Positions 14,136 to 58,878 of a stretch of DNA of 64,000 bases are shown piece after piece. Each line of letters opens with the position of its first letter. Within the stretch, counting starts at the first letter, position 1. The translations under genes were made by a program, and so were the position numbers. The stretch is from Eledone cirrhosa. Lineage: Eukaryota. Location: the NCBI GenBank assembly GCA_964016885.1, contig OZ024743.1, positions 203,670,001-203,734,000 on the forward strand, read 5' to 3'. The notes under the pieces are model-generated. The model saw only the letters and a program-made list of their open reading frames with translations, ran no database searches and had not been told where the DNA came from.

Positions 14136-14137
<2 letters not shown>
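13772..14137. mobile_element. (TA)n-flanked fold-back with minimal hammerhead (family C)
   Basis: Arms 13784-13840 / 13949-14003, hammerhead 13929-13991, ACTC...GAGTGC tail 14050-14076. Related to 22513-23066. Confidence 0.7.
13929..13991 (+). ncRNA. Minimal type I hammerhead ribozyme motif
   Basis: Stem I TATTTTGT/ATAAAATA, core CTGATGA, stem II GTACT/AGTAC, GAAA, near-palindromic stem III ATATGTAT, then A. Confidence 0.6.
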
Positions 14138-14194
<57 letters not shown>

Positions 14195-14197
<3 letters not shown>

Positions 14198-15140
14198 GAT
14201 GACAGAGTTCTTTGAGATACTGGCTGGAGTGCTCCGGGGAGATACATTGGCTCCCTACCTTTTTATCATCGTGGTGGACTATTGTATGCGCCTTGCACTG
14301 GAGAAACACCAGGACTCTGGCTTTACTGTAGCACCGGCTCAGAGCAGGAGAGTTAGGGCGAAAAAGGTATCGGATGCTGAGTTTGCCGACGACATAGTTT
14401 TGGTGACAAATACAGTGAAGGAGGCAGAGGATTTGAGGCGGGAGGTTGAGACTGTGTCGATGAGTGTGGGGCTGAGAATGAATGAGACTAAAACAAAATA
14501 TCTGGTAGAGAATGTTGAGAAGCCAGAGGGGATCACTAATGTAGGCGGGAAGCCGCTGGAATTGGTTGAGGATTTCCTGTATTTGGGAGCAAAGATTGGG
14601 AATACGGAGGATGATGTGGTTGAGAGGAAGAGCAAGGCCTGGGCGGCGTGCCACAGCTTGAGATCGGTGTGGAAGTCGGACCTTCGTAGAGACCTGAAAA
14701 TCCGCCTCTTCATTGCTGTAGTGGAGTCTGTGCTGCTGTATGGGTCTGAGACTTGGACACTGACCAAGAAACTCACTCAGATGGTGGATGGGTGCTACAC
14801 GAGAATGCTGAGGATGGCTCTGAACATTAATCAGTATACACTGAGGATGAACGACTGAGAGCTGTATGGGAGCATCCCAAAAGTCAGCTCAAAAGTGACA
14901 CAGGGGAGACTGAGGTTAGCTGGACATGCTCACCGACATCGAGAGTTGACATTGCACTCAGTACTCCTTTGGGAGCCCCTACATGGACACACTAGAAGAG
15001 GAAGACCAAGGCTAACGTATGTTGATGCCCTAAGGACAGACACTGGTCTGTTGGAGATGCAGGACATGGCAGCGATAATGAGGGACAGAGACCGCTGGAG
15101 AGAACTCGTCCATGGATCTCGGGAATTTTACCCGCCTTAG
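14195..15140 (+). mobile_element. 5'-truncated RTE-clade LINE (RT C-terminal half, one in-frame stop)
   Basis: GVLRGDTLAPYLF, FADD, FLYLG, VLLYGSETW, RLRLAGH, RRGRPRLTYVD motifs. TGA at 14856. (TA)n on both sides. Confidence 0.9.
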
Positions 15141-15304: not shown

Positions 15305-15505
15305 ATAGGAAAATAGTGAAGACCCCGACGGCAGAGCTCAAGCCGTTCCGACGGCTATTTCTCGACGGATATTTCTGGTCCAGAAATAGCCGTCAAACAG
15401 CATGATATCTGCGGTCGTGACTCTTTTCCTATTACCCACTCTACTACCCAAAGTATCGAGTACTCTGGATTTATGGTCCACCTGGTTCTTTACCACACTT
15501 CCTGC
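15305..15505. mobile_element. Fold-back derivative of the 35969-39805 Penelope ends (family A, diverged)
   Basis: GACCCCGACGGCAGAGCTCAAGCCGT...TAGCCGTC followed by the CCTATTACCCACTCTACTACC...GAGTAC tail. Confidence 0.75.
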
Positions 15506-16294: not shown

Positions 16295-19200
16295 GAATGC
16301 TATGGTTGACGGAGGCTCGGCTCTGTAAGGTATTGTAAATTTTGACCGCTATAACAATTGTAAATTGTTTAAAACTTTAACCAACTTGTAGACAAAAACA
16401 CCCTCCCCCTCGTGAGAGGGGTCTTTCTGCCTGCTATTTGGCCCTTCGGGGTTAAATAACCGCTTATTGGGGTTTTGTGCCCATTATTTATTTTAAAAAA
16501 CCAAAAAAAAACATGGCTACGAAAAAGAATTTTCATAGGTCACTCCCACTCATTCCGTCTTCTTCTTCCTCAATCGTCACTACAGCAGGGAGAAGATTGT
16601 CTCTCTCCCTCCCTTCTCTAAATGTGTCTCTCTCCCTCCCTTCTCTTTCACAAGCGACGCCAGAAAAGAAAAATCACGTGCAAAGCGAGCAAGATTTCTC
16701 CACGACGACGACGACATCGACGAAAAAGGTGTGCGGGAAATACGAAAACCCATTTCATTCGTCTGACGTCAGGAATAATAGCAGTAGCAGCCGTAATAAC
16801 AGCAGCAACAGTGACAAGGAAAACAACAGTAGCAGCCGCAACAGCATCAGCAGCAGCATAAACAACAACAGCATTAGCAGCAACAACAACAGCAGCAGCA
16901 GCAACAACAACAACAACCACAGCAACAGCGGCGGCGGCAGTAGTCGTAGTACCTGCAGCAACAACAAAAGTAACAGCAGCTCTGACGACAACAACAACAA
17001 CAACAGCAAAGAAAAAGCAATCTCGTTTGCAGGTATCGCAAAGAACCTGGAAACCATCCTCATAACAAATGAGGAATTAGAGGAAGCGAAGAAAATGGTG
17101 ACAAAAACTGGACACCGAGCAATCTGCAAGGCAGCGGAAACATTTTTCGAAACCCAACAGCACTGTACGGTCACGTACCGTACAGTAAGTACAAAATCCC
17201 GTAGAGTTGAAAGAGCCACAGAGGCTCAAATACAAAAAGCCTTGGGGTCTGTGTGGCAGCAGAAAACGCACATCACCCGAGGCAAGAAATATGCCACCGT
17301 AGACGTACTTTTTGCCACACCCCTGGAGGCAAAGGCTCAATCCTTAGTGACCCTAAGGAGCAAGGAAATGGTGTTGGTGCTCTCCTACTGCGTGCAAAGA
17401 ATTGTGAGGGTCAAACTGACCCACGCCCCCCCCCCCCCCCCCCCGAGATGGCCCCTTCTTGGCTGGCCGCGTCTGTCCTCGTCGGAATCGTGGACAAAAC
17501 AACTGTACTGCAAGTACAGAAAAAAGTAAGAGAAGATTGGGTCGGCACCTCCATTGAGATGTTAATCCAAACCAACCAGGAGTGCATCGAAGCTATCCCG
17601 GATGTGATAGACTTCGATAACGGCACTCAACTGCCCATAAGTGTTGAGGGCAAACACCCAAAATGCTTTCGCTGTGGATCGAATACTCACCTCAGGGCCT
17701 TCTGCAATGAGAAGACCCTGAGAAAGGAAAAAAAAACCCTCCTTCCGAAACCGGCACCACGGCTACCAGCAACAGGACAAGCGGCAACAAGGAACGATAG
17801 GTCTGTGGAACCCATACCCACGCCACGGAAATCAAAAACAGCAGCAGCAGTGGAAATATTAACAACAACAACAGCAATACCAAATGCAGCTGCAACAGAG
17901 ACTCCAGTGCAAACATCACCAACAACAAGTGAAATAGTGGAGCTGGTACCCCTCCCGGACCTCACAGAATCAGACATGCAGTGTGAGGTGGGAGAAGGAT
18001 GGCAAAAGGTCGTAAGAAGACACAAACGCAGAAGCAGCGCATCGTCGCCTTCGAAAAGGGAGGAAAGAAATGAAAAAAGGGTAAAGGCTACTGCAAAGAG
18101 ACTCACAGCAGCAACACCACCAACACCATTACCACCCACACTAGCACCACCATCACCACCGGCGACAACCCCACCGCCAACAACAACAAAACCTTCAACA
18201 CCACCACCACAAACACCAACATCGCAAACGCAACAACAAAACACACACCCAGCAACAACGACAAGAAAATATCAGAACCACACCCCACCCCCAGAAAAAC
18301 AAATGCACGGCAATAAATACACACAACAAGAAACTAATGACTTACATAATTGAACACACGGACATTTCACAACACGACTACATAATGCCAGCACCAATCA
18401 AAACGCCAACTAACATAAGACTGCTAAAAATAGCACAGAAACAATACACAAACATTAAAACGAAATTCCCCAACGCAGTTGGTGATTTCAGAGACCTAGT
18501 AGGGACTCTCAACCGAAGAGTATATTCGGTCATACTCATAGAAGAGCCGACAACCAGCCGAAGGGACGATTCAACGGTCCCTTCACCAGACGATCAAGTA
18601 AAAAGGGATGTAAAAAACATGCCTCCTCTACGAAAAATACGGTAAGTGGTCTTTGCCATCTTTTCCACTCTATTTTAAACATGACCTCACTCAGAATAGG
18701 CAGCATAAATGCGCGTGGCTTGGGGTCGTCATGGAAGCAGGGTCACCTGCTCAACGACCTCAGGTCACTAAACATAGATGTAGCGGCCATCAGCGAGACC
18801 AGAATCTCCGAAGCACGGGCCTCCGCACCGATCTTCGGCGGCTACGATGTGTACGCATCTCCCATCCGTCCTGGATCGGGGGGAGGAGTTGCTGTGCTTT
18901 TTCGGAGAGGTTAGGATCTCGCCATACGGGCCATCTTCCTGGACCCAGAGGGTAAGGTTGTGGTGCTGGACGTGACCAGCGGAGACGGGCAAGCTTTCAG
19001 GCTAGTGGCCGTCTATGCCCCGACAGGAGCAGGGCCGCCTGATTTCTTCCGGCGTCTGGAGACCTTTCTTGGAACGTCCCGCTCTTTAGTGTTAGTGGGC
19101 GACTGGAACGGGATCTTAGATGCACGCTGGGACTGTGTGGGATAGCGGATATGGGTGGAGGGTGCAAGAGCCTCACCAACATGCTCCGGCGTTTTGAACT

Positions 19201-21845
19201 GTCTGACAGGTACCTATTGGATTTCCCGAATGTGCCAATGTGGACTTGGACAAATCGCATAGGGTCATCCAGATCATATCTAGATAGAGTATTTTGTAGG
19301 GAAATAGATAGGTCTAGCATAGGCTGTCCACAATTCAAGATAGTCAGCTACACGGACCACAAATTTGTGATCTGTGTGCTTGACTTAGATAGGCTTCATA
19401 GACGAGGACCCGGCTACTGGAAGCTAAACGCGTCCTTACGAGCGCGCAAGGCCTACAGAGACCGGATTAGCGAACTAGTTAAGCGGCCGTTGACGGGGGC
19501 CAGCGTAAACAACAAGTGGTGGTTTGCTTTAAAAAGAGCGATTAGAATAGAGTCCATTAGGTTTAGTAAGGCTTTAGCTATAGAGTAAAATAGAGCAGAG
19601 GGAGAACTAGTTAGGAAATTAGACGGGGCGCTTAGCAAAGGCATCGCGATCGACGTACTTGCGGTGAAATTGGCCCTTGACTAATTCTTCAATGCAAAGC
19701 ACGAAGGCTGCGTTGTCAGAGCTAGGGTGCGTGTTCGCAGACACGAGGGGACGATGCCGTTCAATGGGCCCCAGTGGCGGAGGCGCGTCGTGGCAACAAA
19801 CCACGATCCGGTCTTTGCTGGTTCACGACGGGCGCATGCAACTCGATCCCGGGCAAATGTGTGAAGATTTTCAGCCACACTTCGCACAGCTGTTCGGGGG
19901 CAGCGGCGGGCCGGATCGAGGGATGGACTTTAGTGTCTACCTCGACGGACTGCCGCGGCTTTCGGCCACTGAGGCGGAGTGTTGCGAAAAGCCGATAACA
20001 GCCGTTGAAGTACGGGAGGCAATGGCTGGCTGCACAAGGGGTAGATCGCCTGGTTTGGATGGTCTGCCCTAAGAACTTTACGTACAGATGCCAGACTTGT
20101 TCGGAGGTCTCTTGGCGGACGTCTACTGCAACTGGCAACAGAACGGGAATTTCCCAGCTCTGTGAGCCGAGGAGCCTTGGCGCTGCTGAGAAAGGATCCG
20201 AACAAGGGGGATAACATAGATAATTTCAGTCCCATAACTCTGCTAAGCACAGGGTTCAAGATTTTGGCCAAGGTGCTAGCAAAGAGGTTGGCGCTTGTCG
20301 TCGGTGGTCTGGTGGGAGAGGCGCAGACATGCGCCATTCCCGACACGGGTGGATCCTTGTCAATTTAAATCAGTCGGAAGCTTTCGATAGGGTCGACCAT
20401 CGTTACCTAGCGGCAGTCCTGAAGGCGGCTGGCTTTGGGCCCGTCTTCAGAGGCTGGATCGCTCCCAGAAATGGGCGGAGAGGAAGCTATCCTTGAAAGG
20501 TCAAGTGGAGGTGGCTAACGCGTACATCGCGTCCGTCATCAACTACCGCCTGACCGTCATACCTTGTCCTAAGCCCCGCCTGACTAGGCTGGAGCGTTTG
20601 CTCTTTCGCTTTTTGTGAAAGGGACGCGCGCCGATGGTCAGGCGGTCCATCTGCTGTCAACTCCCGCTACGTGGAGGGCTGGCATGCATGCCGTGGCTGA
20701 TGATGCGCAGACACCCGCTCAGGCTACGACATATTCACCTCTTCCTCGGCGGTGATCAGGTGTGGTCGCCGTTTGCTAGACGCGTCTTTCCCCAAATCGT
20801 CTCCTTGACGGAGCTGCAGTCCTGGGTCAAGCGAAGACCGAGAGGGAGCGCTTGGAGACTGGAATGTCTTCAGGCGCTCACAGCTCTCGACTAATCGGGC
20901 AATGTGACCGGAGGAAACTCCACCTTGGCGTTCTATAGAGGATTAGTGGAGGGGAAGAGCGACGACGTACTTGGGGAAACTCTAGGCGTCGAGGAAAATC
21001 AACTAGCCAATCTCTTCGGAAGAACTTTCGTGCCGGGGCCTATGGACAACTTCCAGAAATCCGTGGCCTGGCAGTGCTACCGAGGAGCTTTGCCAGTTCG
21101 GGATAAACTCTACAAGCCTGGAGGTGCCGTCAGCCGGGCATGTCCGAGATGCGTGCAGGGCGAAGAAACCGTCCTGCACGCACTCGGCCAGTGTCCGAGC
21201 ATTGCTGACTTGTGGGTTTATGTCGAACACCTGCTGTCACGTGTAGGACGGATCCAGCTATCAGCTGAGTCCATCTTGAGGATTGCCCCGCCCTCTTCCT
21301 TTAGCCGGGAAGGGCAGGCAGTTTTTATCTGTCTGGTGGCCATGGCGAAAGAGATAGTATGGTGGACACGTTTGAAAGGGCTGAAGACGAGCACTTACCT
21401 CTTCGGTGATGCCCTGATTATCTTTTTCAAATTTCTTTTGAAAAGGAAAATCAGGGTAGAGAGGGAAGTGCTCTCTACCCACCATTTTGTTGAAAGATGG
21501 GTGAGAGAGGCAAGAATGGCCTATGTGAATGGGCCTACTCTGAGTATGTGTCTGTAAATTAAAGGTGGAAAACTGGGAGAGGGCACTTGCCCTGGTGGTC
21601 AGGTTCACTGTGGCTTTTTAATGGGCTTTCTCCGCGAATGTCCCTCAGAAGTCTCCCCGCGATTGGGGAATTTTTCATTGTTATTTTTTTTGTTACATCC
21701 TCTGTTTTGTTTTTTACACGCAGAAATGCCCATTTGTACCGTGTTGTATTGTCCTGTACTGTCCTTAATGTATACTTTATGTAAGCCCTTGTGGTTAATA
21801 AAGAAAGCATTATTATTATTTTTATTATTATTACTATTATTATTA
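16295..21845 (+). mobile_element. Near full-length, decayed Tx1/L1-like non-LTR retrotransposon
   Basis: ORF1 (frameshift at a poly-C run) with CFRCGSNTHLRAFC zinc knuckle. ORF2 APE motifs SINARGL, ISET, GGGVAVL, VYAP, GDWN, LDRV, TDH. GPGYWKLN, SPGLDGLP, PITLL..FKILAKVLAKRL and AFDRVDH, then an internal RT deletion. C-terminal CPRC..ETVLH..C. (TTA)n tail. Confidence 0.9.
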
Positions 21846-23399: not shown

Positions 23400-23426
23400 T
23401 ATATATATTTATTTATTCATATATAT

Positions 23427-23572
23427 ATAACGAAGGAGGTGTTGTAATTAATCAGTTGATCCATAACGCACCAAAGTACTCGATACTTGGTAGTAGAGTG
23501 TGTAATAGAAAATATTCAGGACCCCAACGGCCGGAGCTCGGCCGTTGGGGTCATGGCTCCTGTCATTTCATT
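23427..23572. mobile_element. Family A Penelope-end remnant
   Basis: AACGAAGGAGG...CCATAACGCACCAAAGTACTC...GACCCCAACGGCC..GAGCTC.GGCCGTTGGGGTC. Confidence 0.65.
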
Positions 23573-28467: not shown

Positions 28468-28556
<89 letters not shown>

Positions 28557-28558
<2 letters not shown>

Positions 28559-28745
28559 AACCAGTAAGACCCCGACAGCTGAGCTCAAGCCGTTTCGACG
28601 GCTAATTCTGGACGCAGAACGTCGAAACGGCTTGAGCTCAGCTGTCGGGGTCTTACTGGTTCCTATTACCCACTCTACTACCTCAAGTATTGAGTACTTT
28701 GGTGCGTTATGGTCCACCTGGTTCCTTACCACATTTCCTTCGTTA
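28557..28745. mobile_element. Family A fold-back (ends of the full-length Penelope)
   Basis: Inverted arms GAACCAGTAAGACCCCGAC...TTTCGACG / CGTCGAAACGG...CTGGTTC, plus tail CCTATTACCCACTC...TTCCTTCGT between (TA)n tracts. Confidence 0.85.
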
Positions 28746-29039
28746 TATATATATATATATATATATTTATATGTGTGTGTGTGTGTGTGTGTGTATGTAC
28801 ATTTATATATATATATACACATATATATATATATACATAAATGTATATGTATACACACATATATAAACATAAATGTATATGTATCTATATATATATATAT
28901 GTATATATATATATGTATATGTATGTATATATATATATGTATGAAGGAACGATCGACTTTCGTCAAATCGGACCGAGGGAACGATGTTTCCGTTGGTCTT
29001 TCCAATTGCTAATACTATCTATCGGTCGCAACTCCAGGT

Positions 29040-31380: not shown

Positions 31381-33310
31381 AAAGGATAACAAGGACGATT
31401 GGTTACTCCTTCATTACAGTTATTGGTAGGTGACGCGCGTTTCGCCACTGATCAGATCAAGTTTCGATCTGTATCGATCTTACCCGACTCTATAATCGGT
31501 AGCTCGACGGACCCCTTAAAATGCTAGTAGAAAATGAATACATGGTATATGGTAAAGTCAGAAGTTCATATGTTGGTCAATATGAATTGTTTTGATTGGT
31601 GGAATAAATCATAGGGATGTATTCGCCTGTAATGAATGTGGAGGTGGATGTGCTGATAAGATCTGGGTGACGGTCGCTGGCTGGGATGGGCTGTGGTGTG
31701 ATGTGTGTGTGATGGGGGGGGGAGGGACTTTCGCCTGTAGTGTATGTGGGGGTGGATGTGATATAAGATGGTGGTGACGGTCGCTGGCTGGGATGGGCTG
31801 TGGTGTGGGGGTAGTGGATTGTCGGTTAGACAGATGGGCGTATATTTGTGGCTGATTATTGTGAGTGGTGTGGGTGTGGTGTTGTTGTTTATGGTGATGA
31901 CGTTTATGGTGGTGTAGTGGACGTGTTGGTGGTGTCAAATCCATTGGGAGATACATGCCTAGACACTCTTAGTCTGACAAAATCGTTGTATACATACACA
32001 TGCGTATATACACTGACATATATACACATACACACTTATATACACACACATACACACGCACACATACACCGACATATACATATATTTATATACATATATA
32101 CACATATATGCATGCGCGCGTGTGGATATATAGAGAGGAGGGAGTGTCAGTGGGGGTGGCGTAGTGCATAGATAGAGGGAGGGTGAGAGCCAATGGAGAT
32201 GGTGTTGTACATATAGACATATATAGACATACTTACATACATATATATATATATAGATATCATTCCAATACTTACATACATATATATATATATAGATATC
32301 ATTCCAATACAAAGGTCTGACGACATGGTGTGTTTGCTTACAGTGTACCTTCGGTTTATGATAATATTTTATATTATTTTTATAATATTTTTATATTATT
32401 CAAATAACGAGGTATAGGTAACCCATACACTATGGAAACAATTGTTACCTAATAAATTATTTATACCCGCATTTCCATTTCATAAACTTCTTCTCCATAT
32501 ATGGATAATAAATGTTAATAATAAAACTCCTAATAAACAAGCTAAAACACCTAAATCAATAAATCTAACTAAAAATGTGTGTGGAGAGGTCATTAACAAT
32601 AATTCTCCTAGTAAACATCAGGATGCATCCTATAAAAACAATAAACAACATAGAAACCGTAATAGACGAGTTACTTGGTATAATGTTCCATTTAATTTAC
32701 AAGTTAAGGATAATATACCTAAAAAATTCTTTAATATCCTAGAGAAAAACTTCCCGCCAAACCACAAATACCATCAAATCTTAAATAGATCAACAGTTAA
32801 ATTCTCCTACTCAACAACCAAAAACATAAAACAAAATATAAGTGCCTATAATGCATATAAATGTAAAAAACCCATAAGTATACCACCAGTACATCAAACT
32901 AGCCATAATATCTCCTCAAATACAGGATTCACGGAAAGTTGTAACTGTAGAAACAAGGCAAACTGTCCATTAAAAGGAAATTGCCTTGTTAATAACATAA
33001 TATATAAATGTAAAGTTAACACTAAGGACTCTATTTGTTCATATATAGGAGCTACCTCTAACAATTTTAAGGTAAGATTTAATACCCACAAACATAGTTT
33101 TAAAAATGCCGCACTAGCTAATACAACATCTCTAGCTGAAAAAATTAATAGTTATAGAAAGAGGAATATAGAATATGATATGACCTGGAGTGTGCTCAAA
33201 AGAGCCACCCCTTATCAAAATAGTAGAAATGAATGTAGATTGTGTTCCCAAGAACTTTTCGAAATAATGAAATCTAAGGATATCATATTAAATAAGCGAC
33301 AGGAATTAAT

Positions 33311-34300
33311 AATATCGTGTAATCATAAACTGAGAAAAACATTTAAATATTATAAACCTAATTAATATACACTTTAGAAATTAATATATAGATTAATTTT
33401 AATTTAGTTAACCTATGATTTTAATTTAGTTAACCTATAATTAAAATTCTACTACAGATGAAATATAAAATATCGTGTAATCATAAACTGAGAAAAACAT
33501 TTAAATATTATAAACCTAATTAATATACACTTTAGAAATGAATATATAGATTAATTTTAATTTAGTTAATCTATAATTAAAATTCTACTGCAGATGAAAT
33601 ACAACAAAATATCGTGTAATCATAAACTGAGAAAAACATTTAAATATTATAAACCTAATTAATATACACTTTAGAAATTAATATATAGATTAATTTTAAT
33701 TTAGTTAACCTATAATTTTAATTTAGTTAACCTATAATTAAAATTCTACTACAGATGAAATACAAAATATCGTGTAATCATAAACTGAGAAAAACATTTA
33801 AATATAAACCTAATTAATATACACTTTAGAAATTAATATATAGATTAATTTTAATTTAGTTAACCTATAATTAAAATTATACTACAGATGAAATACAAAA
33901 TTCTGCTTTAAATATTATAAACCTAATTAATATACGCTATAGAAATTAATATATAAACTATTTTTAATTTAGTTAACCTATAATTAATAATCTACTACTG
34001 ATGAACTACATAATTTGGCTTTCCTTCTTACAAATATCATTTCCTAAAACTGATACCATTAAGTAAACATATGTAATTATTTTTAATTTAGTTAAGCTAT
34101 AATTAATATTCTACTACTGTTGAACTACATAATTCCGCTTTAAATATTATAAACCTAATTATTATACACCTTAGAAATTAATATATAAATTATTTTAGTT
34201 AACCTATAATTAATATTCTACTAATGATGAACTACATAATTTGGCTTTCCTTCTTACAAATATCATTTCCTAAAACTGATACCATTAAGTAAACATATAT
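33311..34300 (+). repeat. Tandem ~140-160-bp repeats duplicating the Penelope ORF end
   Basis: ATATCGTGTAATCATAAACTGAGAAAAACATTTAAAT at ~33312, 33470, 33609 and 33766, then degenerating. Confidence 0.85.
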
Positions 34301-34667
34301 AAAGCTTTAACTTCAGGTTATCACTCTATGTTCCTTGAAACCTATATATATTTACTATTTCCCACTAATAAATTTAATCCCCCCCCCCCAATAATTATAT
34401 GTATATGTAAACGTGGATGTGTGTGTATATAAGTGTGTATGTATGTATGTGTGTATGTATGAGAGTGTAAAAATACATATATATGTATGTGTAGATATAT
34501 ATATATATATATATATGTGTATATGTGTGTGAGTGTATATATATGTATATATATATATATGTCTGTGTGTGTATGTGTGTGTATGTATATGTACATGTGT
34601 ATATGCGTATATATATATGTATATATATGTATGGGTATATGTTTGTGTGTGTATGTGTATGTATGTG

Positions 34668-35900: not shown

Positions 35901-35970
<70 letters not shown>

Positions 35971-35980
35971 AACAAGTAAG

Positions 35981-36075
35981 ACCCCGACGGCTGAGCTCAA
36001 GCCGTTTCGACGGCTAATTCTGTACTGAATGAAAAATTAATTCTGGTATTTAAATAGCCGAACTTATCAAGGGGT
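35981..36075 (-). ncRNA. Type I hammerhead ribozyme, U3-A8 core variant (3' pLTR)
   Basis: ACCCC-UUGAUAA-G..CGGCUA...UAGCCG.C-GAAA-CGGCU-ugagcuc-AGCCG-UC|GGGGU. Confidence 0.8.
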
Positions 36076-37277
36076 AATTCCATATATGGTCAAAGAGATA
36101 ATCACCAGGATTGGTCACATCACAAGTTAGTAGTAAATCTGTGATGGCAAGTTGGTGGGGGAAGGGGTAGCTCAACCTGCCAGTAGGAGAAAAGGGGAGA
36201 GGAGGTGGAGTAGACCCATTCATGCGTTGGTAGTGCCAGCTACAGCTGGGTGTGAGGTCAAAGAGGATACTGGGGAGGGGGAGGGGGAGGAGGTCGAAAC
36301 GGTAAGTAGAACAATGAAAGGTAAAACTGTAAAAGGTACTGAGAGAGAAAGAAAAAAAATATAAGCAAAATCTGGTTACTAAGACTTAAGTCTCTCGTAT
36401 TGCTAGGCTGAAGAAATACATAAATAAATAAATAAACAAATAAGTGAATAAAAGAATAGATAAATAAATTTAAAAAAATATATATATATATAATGTAGAA
36501 TAAAAAAATAAATGATAATAATAGAAAAAAAACTAGGTGGGTCGGAAATAAAGGGACCCTAATACGAGGTATAAGTGCATGTATCGTACGGTGACGGGTC
36601 AACAAAAGGGGGACCAGAATACTAAAGAGACTACCACGAAAATAATAAAGGTTTCTACCACGAACACAGGGCCAGCAACCACCCAGTGCAAGAAAGTAAA
36701 CTAGTACGAGAATATAATTCAGGGTCCCGCAAAAAAATACTGGTGCTAACTCTAAGGGTACCGCCACGAAACAAAAGGTCTTATACAAGCTACATGAAAG
36801 ATCGTACGAAGTAAAAGTAGAGAACGGAAAATTAATACAGGAACACCCCCACCTCACCCCACCCCACCCAAAAAAAGGGAAAAAGAAAAAAGAGATACTG
36901 GATAAACGAGAAATTATAGCAAAGATGCCACTAAGAAATATAGAAGGCACGGAAAAGGGGGACAGCGGTCGGAGAAGGGGGAGAGTATCCGAAGTCTAAC
37001 ACCTCTGCTATAAAAAGCGGAGTCAGCCACATCTATCATAGAATGGGGGAGGGGGTGGGGGTGCTGAAGCTACAAGGGACCGATGGGCTACCTCGGGTGG
37101 GCGAGAAAGAGACGACGACAAAGAAAGGGAACTGGGGTAGAAGGACTAGGGAGGGATGGGGGGAAGGAGGAAATATAGAGGAAGCGATAAAAGAATGTAA
37201 AAGAAGATCTTACGTCTCCATAGGCAAGCAGGGGTTACCCATTACAAAATAGGCAAGTGGGGTGTTATAGCCCTAGG

Positions 37278-39435
37278 CTAACCCCCCCCCGGGTCATTAT
37301 GGGGTTTGAGGGCGAGGTAAGTCCTACGTAATCGGTGTTTACATGCAGTAACCAGTTCATCTTTCTTGTTTAGGAGTTGGTCCGTCGAAAACAGCATTTG
37401 TAATGTTTCCTCCGAGCATAAATTGCACGGACGGCGTCCTCCCGTGTAAGAGTTGGCTCTGGACAGTAATTTCCAAGTGAGATCATAGTTGATGTTGTTG
37501 TCCTTGAGGTCCCATATGTGGCCCGAAAGTGTAGTGGCGTGACGCTGAGCCGGGTTTCGGAAGGTATGTCTGTGTTGGTATAGCCGGGTCTTGAAGTCGC
37601 ATGCGGTTAATCCTATATAAGCTTTGTTGGAGGTGTCCGTGCTCACGTTGCACTGGTAGATCACATTACGGTCTCTGCATCTGTTGTCGAGGGGGCAACT
37701 GGATCTATCAGGACAGTTGCACCTCCTGGTCGGCTCTCCACTGCTATTTGGGTTGTTTCTTCCATCGGGGTTGAGTTTTTTGTTGTTGGAGGAGACGATG
37801 TTTTGTGCGAAGTTAGGTGTAGTGCTGTAAGGGAGTTTGATGGTATTTTTATTAATTATGTTGTGGTAGCGGTGTTGTGGTGGGAAGTGTTTTTCAATGA
37901 GCCTAAAGAAAATTTTCCCGATGGGAGTTGTCACCTCAGCGTTGTGGGGAGGATTGAACCATGTTACATTGCGTGAGCGGTGGTGTCGCCTGCTGGTTCC
38001 GCTAATGGGAGCTGGACAGTAGGATATTTCCTCCCGGAAACCACTCCGCTTGAGGGCCTGGTTGTAGTAAGGCGCATGTTCATCGAATATCTTCTCATTA
38101 GCTGACAAACGGGATATACTGAGGCAGATGTTTTTGACCAGGTTGTTGGTGATGTTCCTGGGATGGTTAGATCGGCGGTGGATGTAGTGCAGGTTGTCAT
38201 TGGGTTTCCTGTATGGGAAGTACAGGTCATTATTGAGATCGAGGGTAACGTCCAGGAAATTAACTCGGGTCAGGGACGTTTGTAGGGTTATTTTAAATCC
38301 CCAGTCGCGGAAGAAGCTGATTAATTGTTTACGGACCCGATCTGTACTACTGGGGTTGTACCCTTTAAGGGTAAGGAGCCCATCATCACGGTACAATCCA
38401 CCACCGAAAGCAGGAAACATCGGTGAGTTTGGCTATAAGGAATAATCCTATAAGATCTGTGACCTCCGCCGAATCCGTAGCGCCCATGCTGACGTCGAAG
38501 GGCGAGTCAGGAGCTCTTTTTATCCATTTGGAGTTATCAAAGAGTAAGACTGTCTTCCTGGCGTGGAGGATGATTTTTCTTTCCTGGTCGGTGATGGGCA
38601 CAAGTGCTTCGGCGAAGTCCAAGGCGGCAGTAAGTAGCGGTAAGGTGATTGAAGCATAGTAGCTCTCTATGTCGAACTGGATAAATTTAGTGTCTCGTTT
38701 ATCCTCCAAATTTCTGAACCATGAGATAACTTCCTGGCTGTTGATCCATAGGCTAAGTCGGGCGTGTTGCTTGACTTTAGGTATCACGCGGTCTAGGATT
38801 TTTTTGCTGATTCTCCCTATGTCGGACTTCGTTGGGTTTATAAGCCTGATAGATGGTTTACGGTCGAAATCGGATTTGTGGTCCTTCAGTGTGAAGTAGG
38901 GTGTCCGTGGGTCTAGGGGTTCGGTGCGGTCGGCGACCCCGAGGCTGGAGGTAATTTGTTGTCCATCTCGATTAATGTCCTCGATGCATGAGTGGTTGGC
39001 CTTTTTATAGGTGGAGTTTAGGCTACTCCTGATCAGTGTGTGGTAGCTGTCGGGGTTGACAAAGTATAGGTTCCCAGTTTTATCCGAATGCACCATGTTG
39101 TCATTTGTGTTATCATACTCTGTTAAGTTGCTACGGAGTTTTTGTAGGAATCGGTTGTGTCTGGGTTTGAATTTAAGGTTCTTGACCAGTTGGAAGAGGT
39201 CATTCTCGAAGGGTGAGAGCAAAGGGTTCGGGGGGGGGGGAGATTTATAGGTAATAAATCCGAATCTCTCCTTGGTACCGAAGTCCTGATTGTCGCAGAA
39301 TCTGTCGTAGAAAAAAGTTCTCCATCTAAGTCTTTTCGCAAATAGGTCGATTTTTTGCGTGAGCATCCGAAGGTAAAGTTTTTTCGGTGGGATTGGGATG
39401 TTCTTGGTAGAGAAGTCGATATTGTGTTTTCGCAT
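37278..39435 (-). CDS. Penelope-like RT-GIY-YIG polyprotein with one frameshift near 38420
   Basis: ATG at 39435 (MRKHNIDFSTKNIPIP). Motifs RLINPTKS, FIQFDIESYY, DVSMGA, LYRDDGL, VNFLDVT, CNC..CPL..C, VIYQC..YIGLT..FKTRLYQH, CNLC..E, CKH. Confidence 0.88.
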
Positions 39436-39620
39436 GGTGCGGGTGAAACAAATTGAGCTTAGCGGAAACGTCTGGATACGGCGTGGTAGGGTCGGAAAGT
39501 GCTCTACTACGGGGATAGGAGCTAGATAACGAAGGAAATGTAGTAAGGAACCAAGTGGACCATAACGCACCAAAGTACTCAATACTTAGGGTAGTAGAGT
39601 GGGTAATAGGAACAAGTAAG

Positions 39621-39715
39621 ACCCCGACGGCTGAGCTCAAGCCGTTTCGACGGCTAATTCTGTACTGAATGAACAATTAATTCTGGTATTTAAATAGCCG
39701 AACTTATCAAGGGGT
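39621..39715 (-). ncRNA. Type I hammerhead ribozyme, U3-A8 core variant (5' pLTR)
   Basis: Same as 35981-36075 except for one loop substitution. Confidence 0.8.
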
Positions 39716-39802
39716 AATTCCATATATGGTCACTCTACTACCCTAAGTATTGAGTACTTTGGTGCGTTATGGTCCACCTGGTTCCTTACCACATTTCCTT
39801 CG

Positions 39803-39873
<71 letters not shown>

Positions 39874-40302: not shown

Positions 40303-41133
40303 TATGAAATATAAGAATCAAAGAACTGTTCAAAACATTATTGTGCTTACAGCTGTTTCCTCCAAACCGAGGTTTGCATTCTTCGGAGCAATTTATTAAT
40401 GAATGGACAGTTATATGACCTCCTTTTCACCCAAGAGACATACCGATAGATATGCAAATATTGTGGGTCAACATTCATTACAGCATTTAGAGTGGCAGTA
40501 CACACTTCGAGATTACATTCATATTAAGAGGTACAATCAAAAATCAAAAATACAGGTTAAAATACAACATGAGGATAAGCGGTTATATAGTGCAAATGTT
40601 ATATGTGTGGCAAGCACCTGCGTCTTGTTTATATAGTGTGGCAGAGAGATAAGTGTGGTAGGAGCACTTAGGTAGGTAAAGAAGAGTGTTAGGTTGGTTG
40701 ATCTGGTGGAAAATTCTTTATATGATTGTTATAGTCTGTGTGTGGAGAAATGTTATAAGCATTAAAAATAGTGGAAGCATTGAAAGTATTAAACGTATTG
40801 GAGATGCACAGCGAAGGGATGACAAGGACCTCATGTACTTCGACATTTTCATGGTCAGGGGAGTGTATTCTTCGATTATATGCCCCTCACATAATCCACG
40901 CAATTCTTTTATTATGAATGTAATCTCGAAGTGTGTACTGCCACTCTAAATGCTGTAATGAATGTTGACCCACAATATTTGCATATGTATCGGTATGTCT
41001 CTTGGCTGAAAAGGAGGTCATATAACTGTCCAGTCATTAATAAATTGCTCCGAAGAATCCAAACCTCGGTTTGGAGGAAACAGCTGTAAGCACAATAATG
41101 TTTTGAACAGTTCTTTGATTCTTATATTTCATA
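40303..41133. mobile_element. Fold-back with 220-bp arms, each carrying a CCGAAGA hammerhead
   Basis: Arms 40303-40523 / 40913-41133. Hammerheads at 40344-40390 (-) and 41046-41092 (+). Confidence 0.78.
41046..41092 (+). ncRNA. Minimal hammerhead motif, C4 variant
   Basis: TGCT-CCGAAGA-aTCCAAAC-ctcg-GTTTGGAg-GAAA-CAGCTG-TA|AGCA, with palindromic stem III ACAGCTGT. Confidence 0.68.
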
Positions 41134-49282: not shown

Positions 49283-49350
<68 letters not shown>

Positions 49351-49354
<4 letters not shown>

Positions 49355-49540
49355 AGTAAGTAAGACCCCGACGGCTGAGCTCAAGCCGTTTCGACGGCTA
49401 ATTCTGTCAGAATTAGCCGTCGAAACGGCTTGAGCTCAGCCGTCGGGGTCTTACTTACTCCTATTACCCGCTCTACTACCCTAAGTATTGAGTACTTTGG
49501 TGCGTTATGGTCCACCTGGTTCCTTACCACTTTTCCCTCG

Positions 49541-49542
<2 letters not shown>
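49351..49542. mobile_element. Family A fold-back
   Basis: Perfect ~55-bp inverted arms 49351-49405 / 49408-49462 plus tail, between (TA)n tracts. Confidence 0.87.
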
Positions 49543-49578
<36 letters not shown>

Positions 49579-49581
<3 letters not shown>

Positions 49582-52500
49582 GGAGGTGAGTTTTATTGTA
49601 GCACAATAAAGCAATGCAAATATCGGATAAGTAGCACTCAACAGTTTATTGGACTGGAGTATATATAAGAAGAAATTAAAAGATGGTGAAAAAACATGGA
49701 TTACTACAGCATCACAACCTCACTTAAAAACATACCTATTCCGGGAAAATCTGAATTCACTAAACTTTTGATTGAAAAGACTGACTCTTTTGTGAAAAGG
49801 CTTAGATGGATCGCCTTGTTCCATGACCAGCGCTTAAAAGGAAATGTTTATATTAAGGAACATAACAATATTGATTCTTTTTTTAACTCTAGAAGGAATC
49901 CTCCTTTCAATAAAAACCTAGCACAGTTTGAAGATGAACTAACTAAAATTATACGAGGACTTAAATTCAAGAGAAACCCTTATAGAGGACAGGAACACCT
50001 TATCAATCTCAGGAATAAAATGATCGACCTTAATTCCTCTAAAAAAGTTTTAGTTCATTCTGACAAAACTAATAATTTATACGGCGTAACTAGAGATAAA
50101 TATAATAACCTTATCCTTAAGGAACTAAGGAAGAAATATCGCAAAACCAACCATGAGAATCTTGAATCTATTAATTTTTAAGCTTTTGAGATTATTTCTA
50201 AACTTGGTATCGAGAAAAAGACCGAACCCTTCTTCCCAAGAACTCCGAGGATAAATCTTAAAGATTACAAAATTAATTTTCGAACTGAATTGCCTGTTAG
50301 ACTAATCGCCCCCTCTAAATCCGATCTGGGGTTGTTAGTAAATCCATCTTGGATAGAATTATCCCACAGGTTCGTTCTAACTGCTCTAATTCTAATTTAA
50401 ATTTATGGATGAGTACATCTGATGTAATAGACTGGTTCAATGACCTGAATAATAAAAACAAACAAAAATTTATTTAGTTTGACATCGCCAGTTACTATTC
50501 TTCTATTTCGCCTTCACTCCTCAACAAAGCTCTCTCTTATGCGTTTAAATATTCAGACATCACCATAGATGAATTGAACATCATTCTCACCGAAAGAAAA
50601 ACTATCCTGGAATTCAACAACGAATATTGGACTAGAGCTGATACTTCCAACAATTTTGACATCACCATGGGTTCGTCGGATTCAGCGCAATTGACGGACT
50701 TGGTTGGAATTTTCATCTTGAACTCTTTAAATCGGAAAATTCCTCAACTTTGCGGTGGAATTTATCGTGACGATGCCCTTTTTACTGTCTTAAACTGTAA
50801 CTTAGTAAACCTTAATATTATCAAGAATAATGTACTTGATCCATTTAAGCACCTTAACCTAAAATTTGAATTTGAGAACAACGTTAAATTAGCTAACTTC
50901 CTAGATATATCACTTAATCTTTACACCGGCCTATATTACCCATACCATAAGGATAATGAGAACCAAAATTATGTTAATTTTAAATCAAACCACCCTATTA
51001 ATGTTAAAAATGCTATAGTCAGAAATGTTGAAAAAAGAATTTCTAATCTATCTTCTAATAAACTTATCTTTGACGCTAAAGCCAATTATTACAATAATGC
51101 GCTATCCAGAGCTGGTTATCCAGACAGAATTAAATACAATAATGAAACCAATCATGGCAGAACTTATAGTAATATAGCTAGTTATAAGCATTCCAATAGC
51201 ATAAAGAGGAGAGCTAGATATAAAAATATTATTTGGTACAACGCTCCTTTTTCTCTTTCTATTATTAGTAATATTCCTAAATTATTTTTTAGGGCGTTAG
51301 ATAATTGCTTCCCTCCTTCACATATTTATAGTAAGATCTTTAATAAACATACAATTAAATTCTCTTATTCCACCACTTCCAACATCTCTAACATTATCTC
51401 AAAACATAATACTAAAATATTAAATAATAAATCATATCCATCCAACCCTGAGCGCCATAGTAATAACACTATAAGACCTCACGTTAATGTAAACTCTACA
51501 CAAGATTACTTATAAATACGACGTCAAACGTAATTTCGTTGAATGCTCCTAATACTAATCTAAATCAGGAAACATTAGCACCTCTTGTAGGTAATTTCTC
51601 CACTACAATTCCTTCTATAATTAATTCTGTGCCACTTGCAAATAACTCTGCTAATAACATTAATCGTAAATGCAATTGCCCTAATAGAACTAAATGTCCT
51701 CTTAATAATCACTGTCTCGATAAAAATTTGGTATACGAATGTAAGGTGATAACTAGTACCAATTCTTATACCTACTTTGGCTCTACTTCTACTTCCTTTA
51801 AGACAAGGTTATATAACCATTCTTCGTCTTTTAAATACCCACTTAAAAGAATAAACACTGCACTCTCAGAACTCATCTGGTCCTTAGAAGACAAAAACAT
51901 TAATTAAAAAATTTCTTGGAGGAAGATTTGCAACGCTTCTCCTTATTCCAAAGCTTCCCTATCTAGCGGAAAGATTTACCATTATCTCTAATTTTAACTC
52001 TATAATAAACTTTAACTTTTTAATTCTCTATAGCAAATTCCTTTATCTTCTTGGGGATACAAGTTTCTTTTAAATAGTTCATCTTTATATCATTTTTTCT
52101 CAGCATTACTTTTTTAAGCCGATATATTTCACAATTTTTTACTTCAAATCTATTAATATTAGCATTAGGTGAATTTTGTAAACAAATTTTTTGACGTAAT
52201 ATTTTCTTCCTCGTATTTTTTCTTTTTTCTCTCTTTCCATGCTGTCTTAACTTAAATAATTACTTTTTCTATTACAATCTATTGAAACAAACTAGGACCC
52301 TATATCGTCTTCTAAGCTTATAAATTATTTAATTTTATTCTCATTCACCTTATCTTATTTTAATTTATTTTATCTTAATAATACATTTTAATAAATTTTT
52401 CGCACATCTTCATAAATCCTTCACTATATAAACCCTAAATATATAAACCATAAATAAATAGTATACTTAATTTCTATATCTGTAATCATAAACATCATCA

Positions 52501-52960
52501 TTCATAAACCTCATTAATTTTTAATTATTTAATTTTTTTATTTATTTATAAATTTACAACCGTTTTTTCAGTTATCTCTCTGTGGAGACAGCATTTCTCA
52601 GTTTAAATGTTTATCTCTCTCTCTCTCTTTCTCTCCTTTCTCTTTCTCTTTCCTTCCTCCTTCTTATACTCTTCCTCCCTTATCCTTTCCTTCTTTTTTC
52701 CTTTTTTCCTTTCTTCCTCTTCCTTCCGTTTTTCCCTTCCTTCCCTTTTTTCCAATCTTCTATATCCTTGTAAATTTATTTATCATTTGTTGATTAGACA
52801 CTACCTTGCTCACAAGTGTTTTTTTAAGCTTCATATCATTTCTCCCTATTTTATCTGATGAGAACGCAAATATCGTCCCAGGATGATATTTGATTTTGAA
52901 ATGCGCATAATAAAATACATGGAACTTTTTTAACCATCTTTTAATTTCTTCTTATATATA
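49579..52960 (+). mobile_element. Near full-length decayed Penelope-like element
   Basis: ORF remnants 49696-51960 (LKNIPIP, HSDKTNNLY, FDITMGSSDSA, IYRDD, NFLDI, CNC..CPL..C, LVYEC..YFGST) with stops and a frameshift. 3' hammerhead 52847-52917. The 5' end 49579-49700 is an inverted copy of the 3' end plus tail. Confidence 0.9.
52847..52917 (+). ncRNA. Minimal type I hammerhead ribozyme motif
   Basis: TATTTTAT-CTGATGA-..CAAATATCGTCC-ca-GGATGATATTTG..-GAAA-TGCGCA-TA|ATAAAATA, with palindromic stem III ATGCGCAT. Confidence 0.78.
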
Positions 52961-53275: not shown

Positions 53276-53277
<2 letters not shown>

Positions 53278-53405
53278 CGAAGGAAGTGTGGTAACAGGAA
53301 AAAGTTTAACTCCGACGGCAGAGCTCAAGCCGTTTCGACGGCTATTTCTGGACCAGAAATAGCCGTCGAAACGGCTTGAGCTCTGCCGTCGAGGTTAAAC
53401 TTTTT

Positions 53406-53410
<5 letters not shown>
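53276..53410. mobile_element. Family A fold-back (subfamily)
   Basis: AGGAAAAAGTTTAAC..CGACGGCAGAGCTCAAGCCGTTTCGACGGCTATTTCTGG mirrored, TA flanks. Confidence 0.8.
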
Positions 53411-54088: not shown

Positions 54089-55155
54089 ATAGAAACAGAG
54101 AAATATACACGTCAAGAGTGAGAAGGGGAGAGAGAGAAAGAAAGAGAGGTGCTACACATGTAAGTTTGTGTGTGTTTGTGCGTGTGTATTTGTGTTGCTA
54201 CTTACATACACATGCATATAATTGAATATAAAAGGAAAAACGAACACAGATATATATATATATGTGTTCAAATCTCAAGGGGCCAGATTCGCTAAGGTGA
54301 AAAGAATACTAACTATAGACAATAGGGTTTGCTTGTCTCAATTTAACAAAAAATCAAGAAAATAAATACAAGCCGGAATTGTGGTAACTACCAGTCACCC
54401 AGACAGCTCTTGGTGCTGTTTCGCAATATTAATTGTGAATAGAAATACCAATTCTAGCTCATCAGTGGGTGAAGAATTAGTATCCTAGACACTTCTAAGT
54501 ATATTAAGTAACTGAATAGTGTGCTATATATAATAAAGCACATGGTATCTAAAATAGTAGCCAGGTTTATTCGACATTTGAAATAGCTCAACAAATTAAC
54601 GGAGCGAATCCGTTAATTTGTCGAGCTATTTCAAATGTCGAATAAATCTGGCTGCTATTTTTAGAGGTGTAAGTTTGTGAGACACGCTAAGATACCATGT
54701 GCTGTATTATATATAGCACACTATTCAGTTACTTAATATACTTAGAAGTGTCTAGGATACTAATTCTTCACCCACTGATGAGCTAGAATTGGTATTTCTA
54801 TTCACAATTAATATTGCGAAACAGCAACAAGAGCTGTCTGGGTGACTGGTAGTTACCACAATTCCGGTTTGTATTTATTTTCTTGATTTCTTTTCTTAAA
54901 TTGAGACAAGCAAACCCTATTGTCTATAGTTAGTATTCTTTTCACCTTAGCGAATCTGGCCCCTTGCGACTTGAACACACACATATATATATATATATCT
55001 GTGTTCGTTTTTCCTTTTATATTCAATTATATGCATGTGTATGTAAGTAGCAACACAAATACACACGCACAAACACACACAAACTTACATGTGTAGCACC
55101 TCTTTCTTTATCTCTCTCCTTCTCACTCTTGACGTGTATATTTCTCTGTTGCTAT
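54089..55155. repeat. ~1.07-kb near-perfect inverted repeat containing two hammerheads
   Basis: ~515-bp arms centred on AACGGA-gcgaa-TCCGTT at ~54606. The right arm has a ~26-bp insertion. Confidence 0.9.
54768..54845 (+). ncRNA. Canonical type I hammerhead ribozyme (mirror copy at 54395-54472 on -)
   Basis: TCACCCA-CTGATGA-GC..AATTG...CAATT..GC-GAAA-CAGC-aacaaga-GCTG-TC|TGGGTGA. Confidence 0.82.
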
Positions 55156-56566: not shown

Positions 56567-56648
56567 ATTAAATGCATTAAAGAAAATTTTGATTGTTTTC
56601 TATGTTGTATATTCATGTGTATATATATATATATATATATATTTACAG

Positions 56649-58878
56649 ATGTCACTCAATATCTGATGCAGATGACGTGGTCTCTTATTTTGGAGAGACG
56701 ACTGAAGAAAGCCACCCAGAAGAAGAAGAAACCGATGGAACATCGGTAAAGACTAATGAACATTCCCCAAACCCTATTCTATTAGCTACAGATAGCGTGG
56801 ACCAGAAAAGCAAGTTTCCTGATTTTAAATTCAATTGCCGGAAATATGCTAACAATCTAGTTACTCGTTCAGAGCAGAACCCATACCTAGACGACACGAA
56901 TAATAAGACTATAAGAGATACGGATGAAGAAGATGGAGAAGAAGGTGGTGAAGGAGATGGAAGAAGAGGGCAGAAAATAGAAGTAACAGTAGAGGGGGAT
57001 GAAGATGAAGAAGAGCGTGAAGAAACAAAACGTTTCTCCAGAGATAACGAGGCTAGTGCTGTCAAGACGTATAAAAAATATAAATATAATAATTTAAAAA
57101 CAAATAAAGCAAGAAGATTTTTTGCAGCTCATCGTAGCGTGTCCTTAAGCGTTGATAATGAGGGTGAACATCTTCCGGTTTCATCGTCAGCTGAAATATT
57201 AAATAAGCCAATATTGGAAGTGTCACCTTCTGTTGACGATGAACATTGCTCTGCCACGGTTTCTGATTTGCAGAACGACCAGACAATTAATCAACCCTAC
57301 AGGCTAAAGAAACCCCAGCGCCCAAGCTTACGTCGGTCGAAAACTCAACCATCTCCGCCAGAGTCACCCGATCAAAATAGATATAGTGTACATAAAACAG
57401 TACGATTCTTAGTGGAGGTGGAGGGCTGTGGAGAAGGTGGAGACGATTATTACAACGCGGACCCCTATTGCCAAGACTACAACTATGACGTCATAGACGA
57501 TAATGACGATGATGAAGAGTATAATGACAAGCAGTACAAGAAAGGAAGAGTTCATTATGCAGGTTTAGGGGAGGATCGACAAGGTAGACGTTTCGAAAAA
57601 GAAAAATATCCAGGGAGAATATACAACACAGTCGCCTCAATGAGATTGTCTTCAATATCATCACCTTCTCTACAGCGTGGTCCCAGCACTACAATGATGC
57701 CCAATTTGGCTACATCAAATTCAATATCCTCATCCTGGTCGAACTTCAGGCTTAACCTCTACAAAAAGTTGACGCAGAAATCTTGGGTCGACGATTCAAA
57801 AAATCGGCGAACTAAGTTGAACAATACGGAAGAATTATTTCCAGCAGCGTCGGGTTCAAAAAGAACTTCATCTTCATCACTATCATCCTCATCGTCACCA
57901 TCGTCCGACTATATGCTCACATGTTCAAACAAAATGGCTACATCGAAAATGAAACCTTTATTACAAAAGCATATTAGCGAGTCATCGGCCCCTTTGGAAA
58001 GTAGGGGAAAACTGTCGTATGTTTCAGATTGTAGTTTAAGAGTAGAAAGTAGCAAAAGTTGCCCTCGCGTAGAAGAACCAATGAAAAGATCATCTAAAAA
58101 ATGGGCCAATGTGGCGGCAAAGGTAGCTTCAAAAGCGACATCGAGGGCCATCGTAAGATCTACTTCTTCTCTTACCATGCCACCGACGACATTGATAGCA
58201 ATTACTACTGTTTCAACTACTACTGCTTCTACTGCTGCTATTACTACGCTTAGTAGTGGCACTACTACTGCTGCTACTAATGCTAATGTAACCTCTACTA
58301 TTACCACTAATATTCATACTAATAATAACAGCACTATTACAACTACTGTTAATAATTCAGTTCAGCCTACATCATCCTCACTGATGTCATCGTCTCCTTC
58401 AACAGCATCATCAACATCTTCTTCATCATCATCATCGTCGTCATCGACGCCTTCCTTATCATCAACAATACCAACTATAAAAATATCATCAACAACAACA
58501 ATAACATCAGCAACACCACCGTCGGTGTTATCGTCAGCGACAGCTACTTCACCAGCGTTAGCACCAGCGCCAGTGTGTGCGACATCATCATTATTACCAT
58601 CATCATCATCATCATCATCAACAGCAGCAACAACGTCATCATCATTATCAAAATCATCATCATCATCCTCCTCATCAAGAGGACTGGCTCAACCAAACAT
58701 GGAAAGCACAGAGAGTTGCCCTGAGCAACAACTCGGGTTGCCATCGGCTGAAGGAATGGAGAAAGTTATTGACAACGAAAGAAAAATTCGTATCCGTAAG
58801 TTACAACAAGATTTGACCCGAATACAGAAGGAACTTCTGGCACTTGATGACCTTGAGTATGACGTTTCTTATGTTTGA
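56649..58878 (+). CDS. GABA-B-R3: GABA-B receptor terminal coding exon, long disordered acidic and Ser/Thr-rich tail with terminal coiled coil and PDZ-type end (-SYV)
   Basis: ttacAG acceptor. The phase-2 join gives AG+A=Arg then CHSISDADD..., matching the 761-aa ORF frame. Open for 2.2 kb to TGA. Confidence 0.8.

Follow-up and report, generated by a model that had tools for sequence, protein, structure and literature searches.

Copy ends of a Penelope-like retrotransposon in Eledone cirrhosa suggest cutting at a U3-A8 hammerhead

A 64,000-nucleotide stretch of the Eledone cirrhosa genome (GCA_964016885.1, contig OZ024743.1, positions 203,670,001 to 203,734,000 of the forward strand; hereafter the window) carries a retrotransposon that, judged by its sequence, is an endonuclease-bearing (EN+) Penelope-like element (PLE) with Hydra-clade motifs. 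A type I hammerhead with a U3-A8 pair lies in each of its two pseudo-long terminal repeats (pLTRs). The ends of its genomic copies lend indirect support to cutting at the GUC site in vivo and suggest that the ribozyme RNA is likely cut in the cell. The reading to which we give slightly better than even confidence is that the window holds a frameshifted, more-than-unit PLE whose pLTR combines a promoter with a self-cleaving U3-A8 hammerhead, and whose full-length copies derive from a circularized unit RNA. Indirect evidence that a natural U3-A8 hammerhead functions in the germline comes from copy ends at the exact cut across the whole genome.

The element lies on the minus strand and is numbered from the predicted cut, position 0 being the first nucleotide after it (window 39625) and -41 being 39666. 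Each insertion has two pieces of opposite orientation, called arms, and counts given as by eye were read off match listings rather than computed.

Structure of the element

A repeat search detected the two pLTRs as direct repeats of 127 nt (35966-36092 and 39606-39732) spaced 3640 nt apart, the same spacing as that of the predicted cuts after 39626 and 35986 by which a preliminary description, made from the sequence alone, had delimited a 3640-nt unit. They differ by a single mismatch (36034/39674), which lies within loop II. The 3' hammerhead occupies 35981-36075 (minus strand; U3 36070, A8 36065, predicted cut after 35986) and the 5' hammerhead 39621-39715 (minus strand; U3 39710, A8 39705, predicted cut after 39626), the latter with a palindromic GAGCUC in loop III. 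On the coding strand, each pLTR contains stem I ACCCC/GGGGU, the core UUGAUAA, G10.1-C11.1, stem II CGGCUA/UAGCCG, GAAA and GUC, and stem III comprises 6 bp when A15.1-U16.1 is counted. The three-way junction is the minimum free energy (MFE) fold, with pair probabilities of 0.82-0.98 in stem I, 0.84-0.98 in stem II and 0.62-0.98 in stem III, and stem I is predicted to be extended and to contain an internal loop. Folding energy alone was ordinary relative to shuffled sequences for three minus-strand fragments (z -0.42, -0.66 and -1.84), and the plus strand folded better (z -3.93). The three helices round the junction, the open helix I, G10.1-C11.1 and an NUH site are those of type I, and the window copy has U4, G5, A6, N7 and A9, G12, A13 and A14, and a Watson-Crick 3-8 pair. 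Sequence and MFE fold thus bear out the described type I hammerheads with a UUGAUAA core, U3-A8 and a GUC site in both pLTRs. Rfam hammerhead models, a match to which is a further mark of the class, did not appear for the whole window as far as rows were listed (150 of 214), nor for 39520-39800, where the sole row was MIR946.

The whole insertion (35966-39809, minus strand) consists of a short inverted arm head-to-head with a long arm of 1.03 units, and both of its ends sit in (TA)n. It is longer than the 35981-39715 originally assigned to the element, reaching the inverted 79-nt arm at 39731-39809 (plus strand), which corresponds to the outer part of the tail with 3 differences. In the long arm, the 5' pLTR (39606-39732) is the more-than-unit portion and is followed by the 83-nt tail (39523-39605), the two parts of the open reading frame (ORF; 38386-39435 and 37278-38420), a 3' untranslated region (UTR) of about 1.2 kb (36093-37277) that is also present in other copies, and the 3' pLTR (35966-36092), all on the minus strand. 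The ORF is in two frames owing to a 2-nt deletion near 38420, which is not present in any of 42 aligned segments of other copies; by this comparison the window copy is broken, or misassembled, at that point. The designation full-length therefore holds for its length but not for its frameshifted ORF.

The 5' part of the ORF (349 aa) contains KNIP, RWR, DKT and reverse transcriptase (RT) motifs A and B, and the 3' part (380 aa) contains YRDD, the thumb, a CxCX5C linker and a GIY-YIG domain without CCHH but with CxxC and CxH. An RT followed by a C-terminal GIY-YIG endonuclease (FDIESYY, YRDD, VIY...AYIGLT, R, E, N) is encoded in one frame (611 aa) by a natural copy (L274), whereas it is split in the window copy. 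Pfam gave nothing above cut-off for both ORF parts, L274 and two homologues, and PDB gave no match below E 0.2. With the 3' part, 215 homologues of at least 666 aa were found; among the 120 listed, identity was 37-47% and nearly all were unnamed proteins. The copies have the layout of EN+ PLEs, with a pLTR from a partial tandem, an inverted 5'-truncated arm and a tail. These motifs and this layout support the identification as Penelope. The marks of the Hydra clade (Craig et al. 2021, PMC8557442), namely an RWK-type motif, DKT instead of DKG, a CxCX5C linker and a GIY-YIG endonuclease without CCHH but with CxxC and CxH beside E and N, are represented by RLRWR, SDKTG, CNCPDRSSC, and CNLC..E and N..CKH, with one C between VIY and YIG. 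Insertion into (TA)n also agrees. The canonical C3-G8 pLTR hammerhead, a described trait rather than a definition of the clade, is replaced here by U3-A8 or C3-A8.

Copy ends at the predicted cleavage site

The 3' ends of copies fall at +19 or +102, that is, 20 and 103 nt downstream of the GUC cut (35966 and 39523 in the window). These two recurring ends probably represent RT start sites, by analogy with the tail model for the anole element Poseidon. A typical copy is made of two arms joined head-to-head in (TA)n, one with a tail and one without. Most copies are tiny, and at 6050 loci both arms end at about -40; these mini inserts are inverted pairs that hold the hammerhead's 3' half but lack the 5' half of the core.

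A search for loci at which both arms end near the cut, with 0-22 nt allowed between them, gave 207 loci genome-wide, of which 50 were listed and 15 viewed. Both arms ended exactly at 0 in 21 of the 50, 12 of them with 1-5 untemplated letters between the arms and 9 blunt (by eye). A further 10 ended at 0 and +1/+2, 10 were joined via CCG/CGG microhomology, 3 had one arm at or compatible with 0, and 6 were of other kinds. Even with an independent stop probability of 0.25 per arm, 12 of 50 corresponds to p 5e-5. Shared ends of both arms with untemplated letters would be expected from run-off at a fixed RNA 5' end.

Single arms were also measured, with one locus (L215) placed by hand, 9 duplicate rows dropped, and 89 of 100 listed rows used in one sample. 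In the tail-arm sample (the first 100 of 3966 matches), the weight was 6.8 at position 0 as compared with 1.3 per nt at -2 to -30, a peak of about 5-fold (0 and +1 together, p 0.0015); the peak was non-significant in the tail-less sample (131 arms). Where matches ending between +8 and -9 were enriched (the first 100 of 1519, overlapping the tail-arm sample), 13 arms ended at 0 and 48 over the 18 other positions (p 5e-6, by eye) when 10 ambiguous stem III fold-backs were assigned to the background; indels or internal deletions accounted for the remainder. The window's family A, all of which is U3-A8, contributed 12 of 18 pure-type double ends and 23 of 93 pure-type tail arms (p 0.0014), an excess to be read with the caveat that the youth of this family favors exact matches. 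ORF-bearing arms started at the cut in 2 of the 36 that reach the upstream site, and one of them (L401) covers an entire unit, running from the cut as far as the 3' end.

We consider it highly improbable that these accumulations do not reflect RNA ends, with RT stalling at stems I/III and II, or joining through microhomology (CCCC/GGGG, CCG, AATT), producing them around a perhaps inactive hammerhead. The 10 CCG/CGG joints among the 50 listed loci, the stem III fold-backs in 10 of 100 listed rows and the lack of a significant peak at 0 in the tail-less arm would fit such an origin. However, microhomology does not apply to the 12 loci with untemplated letters, the peak lies at 0/+1 and not at the foot of stem III (-2/-3), and all 34 long arms that extend to -41 pass it.

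In about 11 of 100 listed rows (e.g. L345, L348), the same 23-nt deletion between direct repeats GACGGCT removes stem III; this is a recurrent template skip.

A putative transcription start in loop II

The majority of short arms end at initiator-like sites in loop II (39663-39672, minus strand, with A at 39666 and 39670). Among 153 arms that reached -35, 147 stopped by -47, with a mode at -41/-40 for the tail-less arm. Position -41 is the A of TCAGT/TTAGT (TYAGT), which is retained in most listed copies of every subfamily despite a diverged loop II, and both TYAGT at -41 and TCATT at -45 resemble the insect initiator. An extra G preceded the A in 15 unambiguous arms, as compared with 5 having an extra A (p 0.02, by eye), and in 7 versus 1 of the loci viewed individually. 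An extra G is expected from the copying of a cap, as for L1. In public contigs, the best-supported joint between opposite strands was 36026/39666 (15 contigs from one study), contigs of unknown kind that cannot show transcription starts or expression. A TATA-like TATTTAAA lies 30 nt upstream of 39666 (39689-39696, minus strand); it is missing from subfamily C, and a TATA box as a conserved feature was accordingly rejected.

ORF-bearing arms came from 40 loci, the best of 924 candidates (all of family A, with 3 apparent duplicate pairs), and behaved differently from short arms: 4 stopped downstream of the cut, 2 at the cut, and 34 passed -47. None of the 34 arms passing -35 stopped between -35 and -47, the nearest stop being at -76. 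For this reason the site in loop II is better read as a transcription start than as a fixed block to RT, and the transcript of the element likely starts at about 39666-39670, inside the hammerhead. Since the start would lie in loop II, the upstream hammerhead would be incomplete in the element's own RNA. The proposal that two complete hammerheads excise the unit RNA would to that extent need correction. A promoter in the pLTR is established for Penelope (PMC6765202; for D. virilis, PMC2377424); in the parts of the sources considered, a transcription start inside a hammerhead was not found described for D. virilis Penelope or for retrozymes.

Variation of the core among genomic copies

The group is abundant, with 1536 first-look pLTR candidates, 5024 matches to a 5' core pattern, of which 100 were listed, and 129 matches to a subfamily C pattern. 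TTGATAA was found in 99 of the 100 family A matches listed (of 221). Across subfamilies, A8 was present in all 100 matches listed of the 5024, and G5, A6 and A9 were likewise fixed while N7 took all four letters; position 3 was U in 68 and C in 32 of the 100 (by eye). Matches lacking A8 numbered 134 genome-wide, as compared with 5024 for a narrower pattern, and were scattered, mostly keeping U3. The copies with C3-A8 form a sublineage that has long arms (L285, L296, L297, G000:C1), makes up about one third of the complete 5' halves listed and is otherwise near-identical in sequence to the U3-A8 sublineage. Such closeness makes the question of hammerhead function directly testable. A C3-G8 sister subfamily, sought genome-wide to show covariation, was not found.

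In stem II, three pairs were changed on both sides among 10 subfamily copies, and 91% of cells were paired as compared with 27-49% in slid controls; these copies are chosen and related, and the pairing figures are not a probability. Judged from the copies, the 3-8 pair is kept in most lineages but not in all. U3-A8 had been proposed to be a compensatory double change selected for catalysis. A8 is fixed, but C3 accompanies A8 in 32 of 100 listed matches and no C3-G8 sister was found, which weakens this proposal. Loss of the pairing across copies, named beforehand as evidence against the proposal, thus occurs in part. U3-A8 is known in natural hammerheads and is stated to be active in vitro (PMC3088659).

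Templates of full-length copies

The insertion in the window covers both cut sites, extending 106 nt upstream of one and 20 nt downstream of the other, and for this reason a doubly cut linear RNA is ruled out as its template. The template ran from the 3' UTR into the 5' end, as a circle, by an end-to-end jump or through multi-unit read-through; the DNA data fit all three.

Under the reading that we favor, two RNA 5' ends would set the run-off points: a capped start at -41/-45 in loop II, and the ribozyme cut. The complete 3' hammerhead would cut itself as a monomer and could also cut the 5' half-hammerhead via a double-hammerhead fold through the loop III palindrome GAGCUC; cut 5' ends could alternatively come from read-through over complete copies. 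When the 3' hammerhead and the 5' half are cofolded without constraints, the predicted topology is that of a double hammerhead (-56.9 vs -40.4 kcal/mol). Cutting at the 3' site would remove the downstream RT starts, and on a linear RNA both RT starts would then lie near the 5' end, yielding mini inserts only. Copying of the ORF would require RT to cross the cut site, which a ligated circle would permit, giving copies of more than one unit such as that in the window. The circle is favored because long arms never stop at -41, and this contrast between short and long arms gives specific grounds for supposing that a circle is required. We also propose, tentatively, that the promoter is buried in the hammerhead, that linear RNA yields mini inserts only, that the double-hammerhead cut and ligated circle are obligatory for full-length transposition, and that the thousands of mini inserts chart RNA 5' ends like fossils. 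If this is true, mini inserts record in vivo ribozyme activity lineage by lineage, a read-out applicable to any PLE-rich genome.

It is somewhat unlikely, in our estimation, that cutting is incidental and that long copies come without a circle from uncut read-through of partial-tandem or multi-unit sources, with RT starting at a downstream pLTR or tail. The anole Poseidon uses unprocessed RNA in vitro (PMC11167929), Naiads without canonical hammerheads still proliferate (PMC8557442), the C3-A8 sublineage spread widely, and multi-unit arrays exist in this genome (loci on C14 with units ~3567 nt apart), all of which would accord with read-through. On the other hand, long arms copied from uncut RNA that starts in the pLTR should end at -41/-45, and none of 34 does. 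The covariation of stem II and the fixation of A8, G5, A6 and A9 while N7 varies across subfamilies are also difficult to reconcile with incidental cutting, and linear templates alone would be expected to trim the tandem part in every round.

A third possibility, which we regard as improbable, is that the template is a unit-length linear RNA on which RT jumps from the RNA 5' end to the cut 3' end, giving a seamless junction without ligation. End-to-end jumping is a property of the R2 RT, and arm ends with untemplated letters are a sign of end-run-off chemistry. Gains or losses of one letter in the junction's G4 run (about 15 of 100 rows listed, by eye) may be traces of such jumps, but may also be homopolymer slippage or assembly errors, and most long arms cross the junction cleanly.

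Several results weigh against the circularized, self-cleaved RNA that we favor. The weight at 0 in the tail-less arms was 2.6 as compared with 1.17 per nt (p 0.21), and in a filtered sample no arm compatible with 0 was found in subfamilies E (0/15), F (0/26) and C (0/41). Cofolding favors dimers of any near-palindromic hairpin. Among the 36 ORF-bearing arms that reach the upstream cut, 34 pass through it, as would be expected from read-through RNA and from a circle alike. A sublineage with long arms, in which C3 is combined with A8, accounts for 32 of the 100 complete cores listed, so that its spread did not require a 3-8 pair in cis. In a mutational scan of one type III hammerhead, only the G-C swap rescued the 3-8 pair and U3-A8 did not (PMC9901934). 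Hammerhead mutants of Poseidon, the one PLE system to have been reconstituted, had no effect on insertion in vitro, and RNA-seq ends were not found at its site (PMC11167929), whereas copy ends mark the cut here. Because C3-A8 copies have spread and the anole element inserted in vitro irrespective of its hammerhead, cleavage may be dispensable or supplied in trans.

Near-identical multi-unit arrays, with units ~3567 nt apart and an inverted unit, were observed at G000:C14:25394000-25403900 (L278) and G000:C14:25094500-25104100. The two appear to have been duplicated with their flanks and are candidate read-through sources.

Comparison with known elements

Hydra-clade EN+ PLEs share with the present element RW(K/R), DKT, the CxCX5C linker and the GIY-YIG domain with CxxC and CxH but without CCHH, as well as insertion into (TA)n, the inverted 5'-truncated arm, the tail and the pLTR hammerhead, the function of which is stated to be unclear (PMC8557442). 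The Hydra hammerheads in File S2 of that source are C3-G8 in 26 of 26 cases and have short stems and loops; here the pair is U3-A8 or C3-A8 in a 95-nt motif with a long loop II and a 7-nt loop III, and the part of that supplement considered gave no match to two short motifs from the present hammerhead. The unit is also longer (3640 nt as compared with generally <3 kb), as is the tail (83 nt as compared with 30-40).

Closer in the ribozyme are the Cercyon PLEs of Schistosoma (Cervera and De la Pena 2014, PMC4209133), which have U3-A8 type I hammerheads in the pLTR, pairs ~3 kb apart, opposite-strand pairs and a palindromic loop III. About 1,300 such U3-A8 matches were reported together with an excise-and-circularize model in which the RNA is cleaved, ligated and copied by rolling reverse transcription; neither U3-A8 in PLE hammerheads nor the circle model is therefore new. 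Cercyon hammerheads lack a stable helix III and need dimers, whereas the present stem III of 5-6 bp is predicted to allow a monomer fold as well. In vivo evidence and an assignment of copy ends to the cut are both absent from the part of that account considered here. Anolis Poseidon (PAc; Frangieh et al. 2024, PMC11167929) also has two internal RT starts bounding the tail and AT-rich targets, and both target strands are cut and extended. For retrozymes, hammerhead cleavage and circles have been shown (PMC7229834; PMC12029980; bioRxiv 10.64898/2026.07.22.740005), but those elements are non-coding. In non-LTR retrozymes the tandem units are non-coding, measure 170-400 nt and contain one complete hammerhead apiece. 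The present element is not a retrozyme because its 3640-nt unit is coding and its mini inserts are inverted pairs, not tandem units, that lack the 5' half of the core. What appears to be new are the genomic footprints at the cut site and at the start site inside the ribozyme; no account that maps the ends of PLE copies to this site was found in the literature covered here, although one may already be in print.

Other features of the window

Head-to-head mini inserts of the window's group lie at 49350-49547, with arms ending near the initiator-like site, and at 28554-28749. An older one of a related subfamily lies at 15305-15503 and one of subfamily F, with its tail partly deleted, at 53276-53410; an older short arm with a tail, of a related subfamily, is found at 23424-23546 (minus strand).

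Another family is represented at 54266-54970 by a head-to-head inverted insert with two canonical CUGAUGA type I hammerheads (54770, plus strand; 54470, minus strand) that have stem I ACCCA/UGGGU and a long loop II, without clear homology to the pLTR described above. Alignment to that pLTR likewise revealed no clear homology for the C3-G8 hammerhead pair at 54376-54864, and this pair was left out of the evidence on covariation. An old, multiply broken Hydra-like PLE (KNIP, LRW, DKT, YRDD, CNCPNRTKC) occupies 49690-52000 (plus strand), and about 850 nt past it, at 52850-52915 (plus strand), lies a hammerhead-like CUGAUGA motif whose stem III is weak.

Long stop-free frames on the plus strand at 14112-14855, which holds an RT-like GVLRGDTLAPYLF motif, 16456-21554 and 32418-33362 probably belong to other retroelements, and a further stop-free frame of 761 codons lies at 56593-58875 (plus strand). 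An AT-rich tandem array with units of 110-160 nt occupies 33311-34302, and a 228-nt inverted repeat (97%) with a 375-nt spacer lies at 40303-41133.

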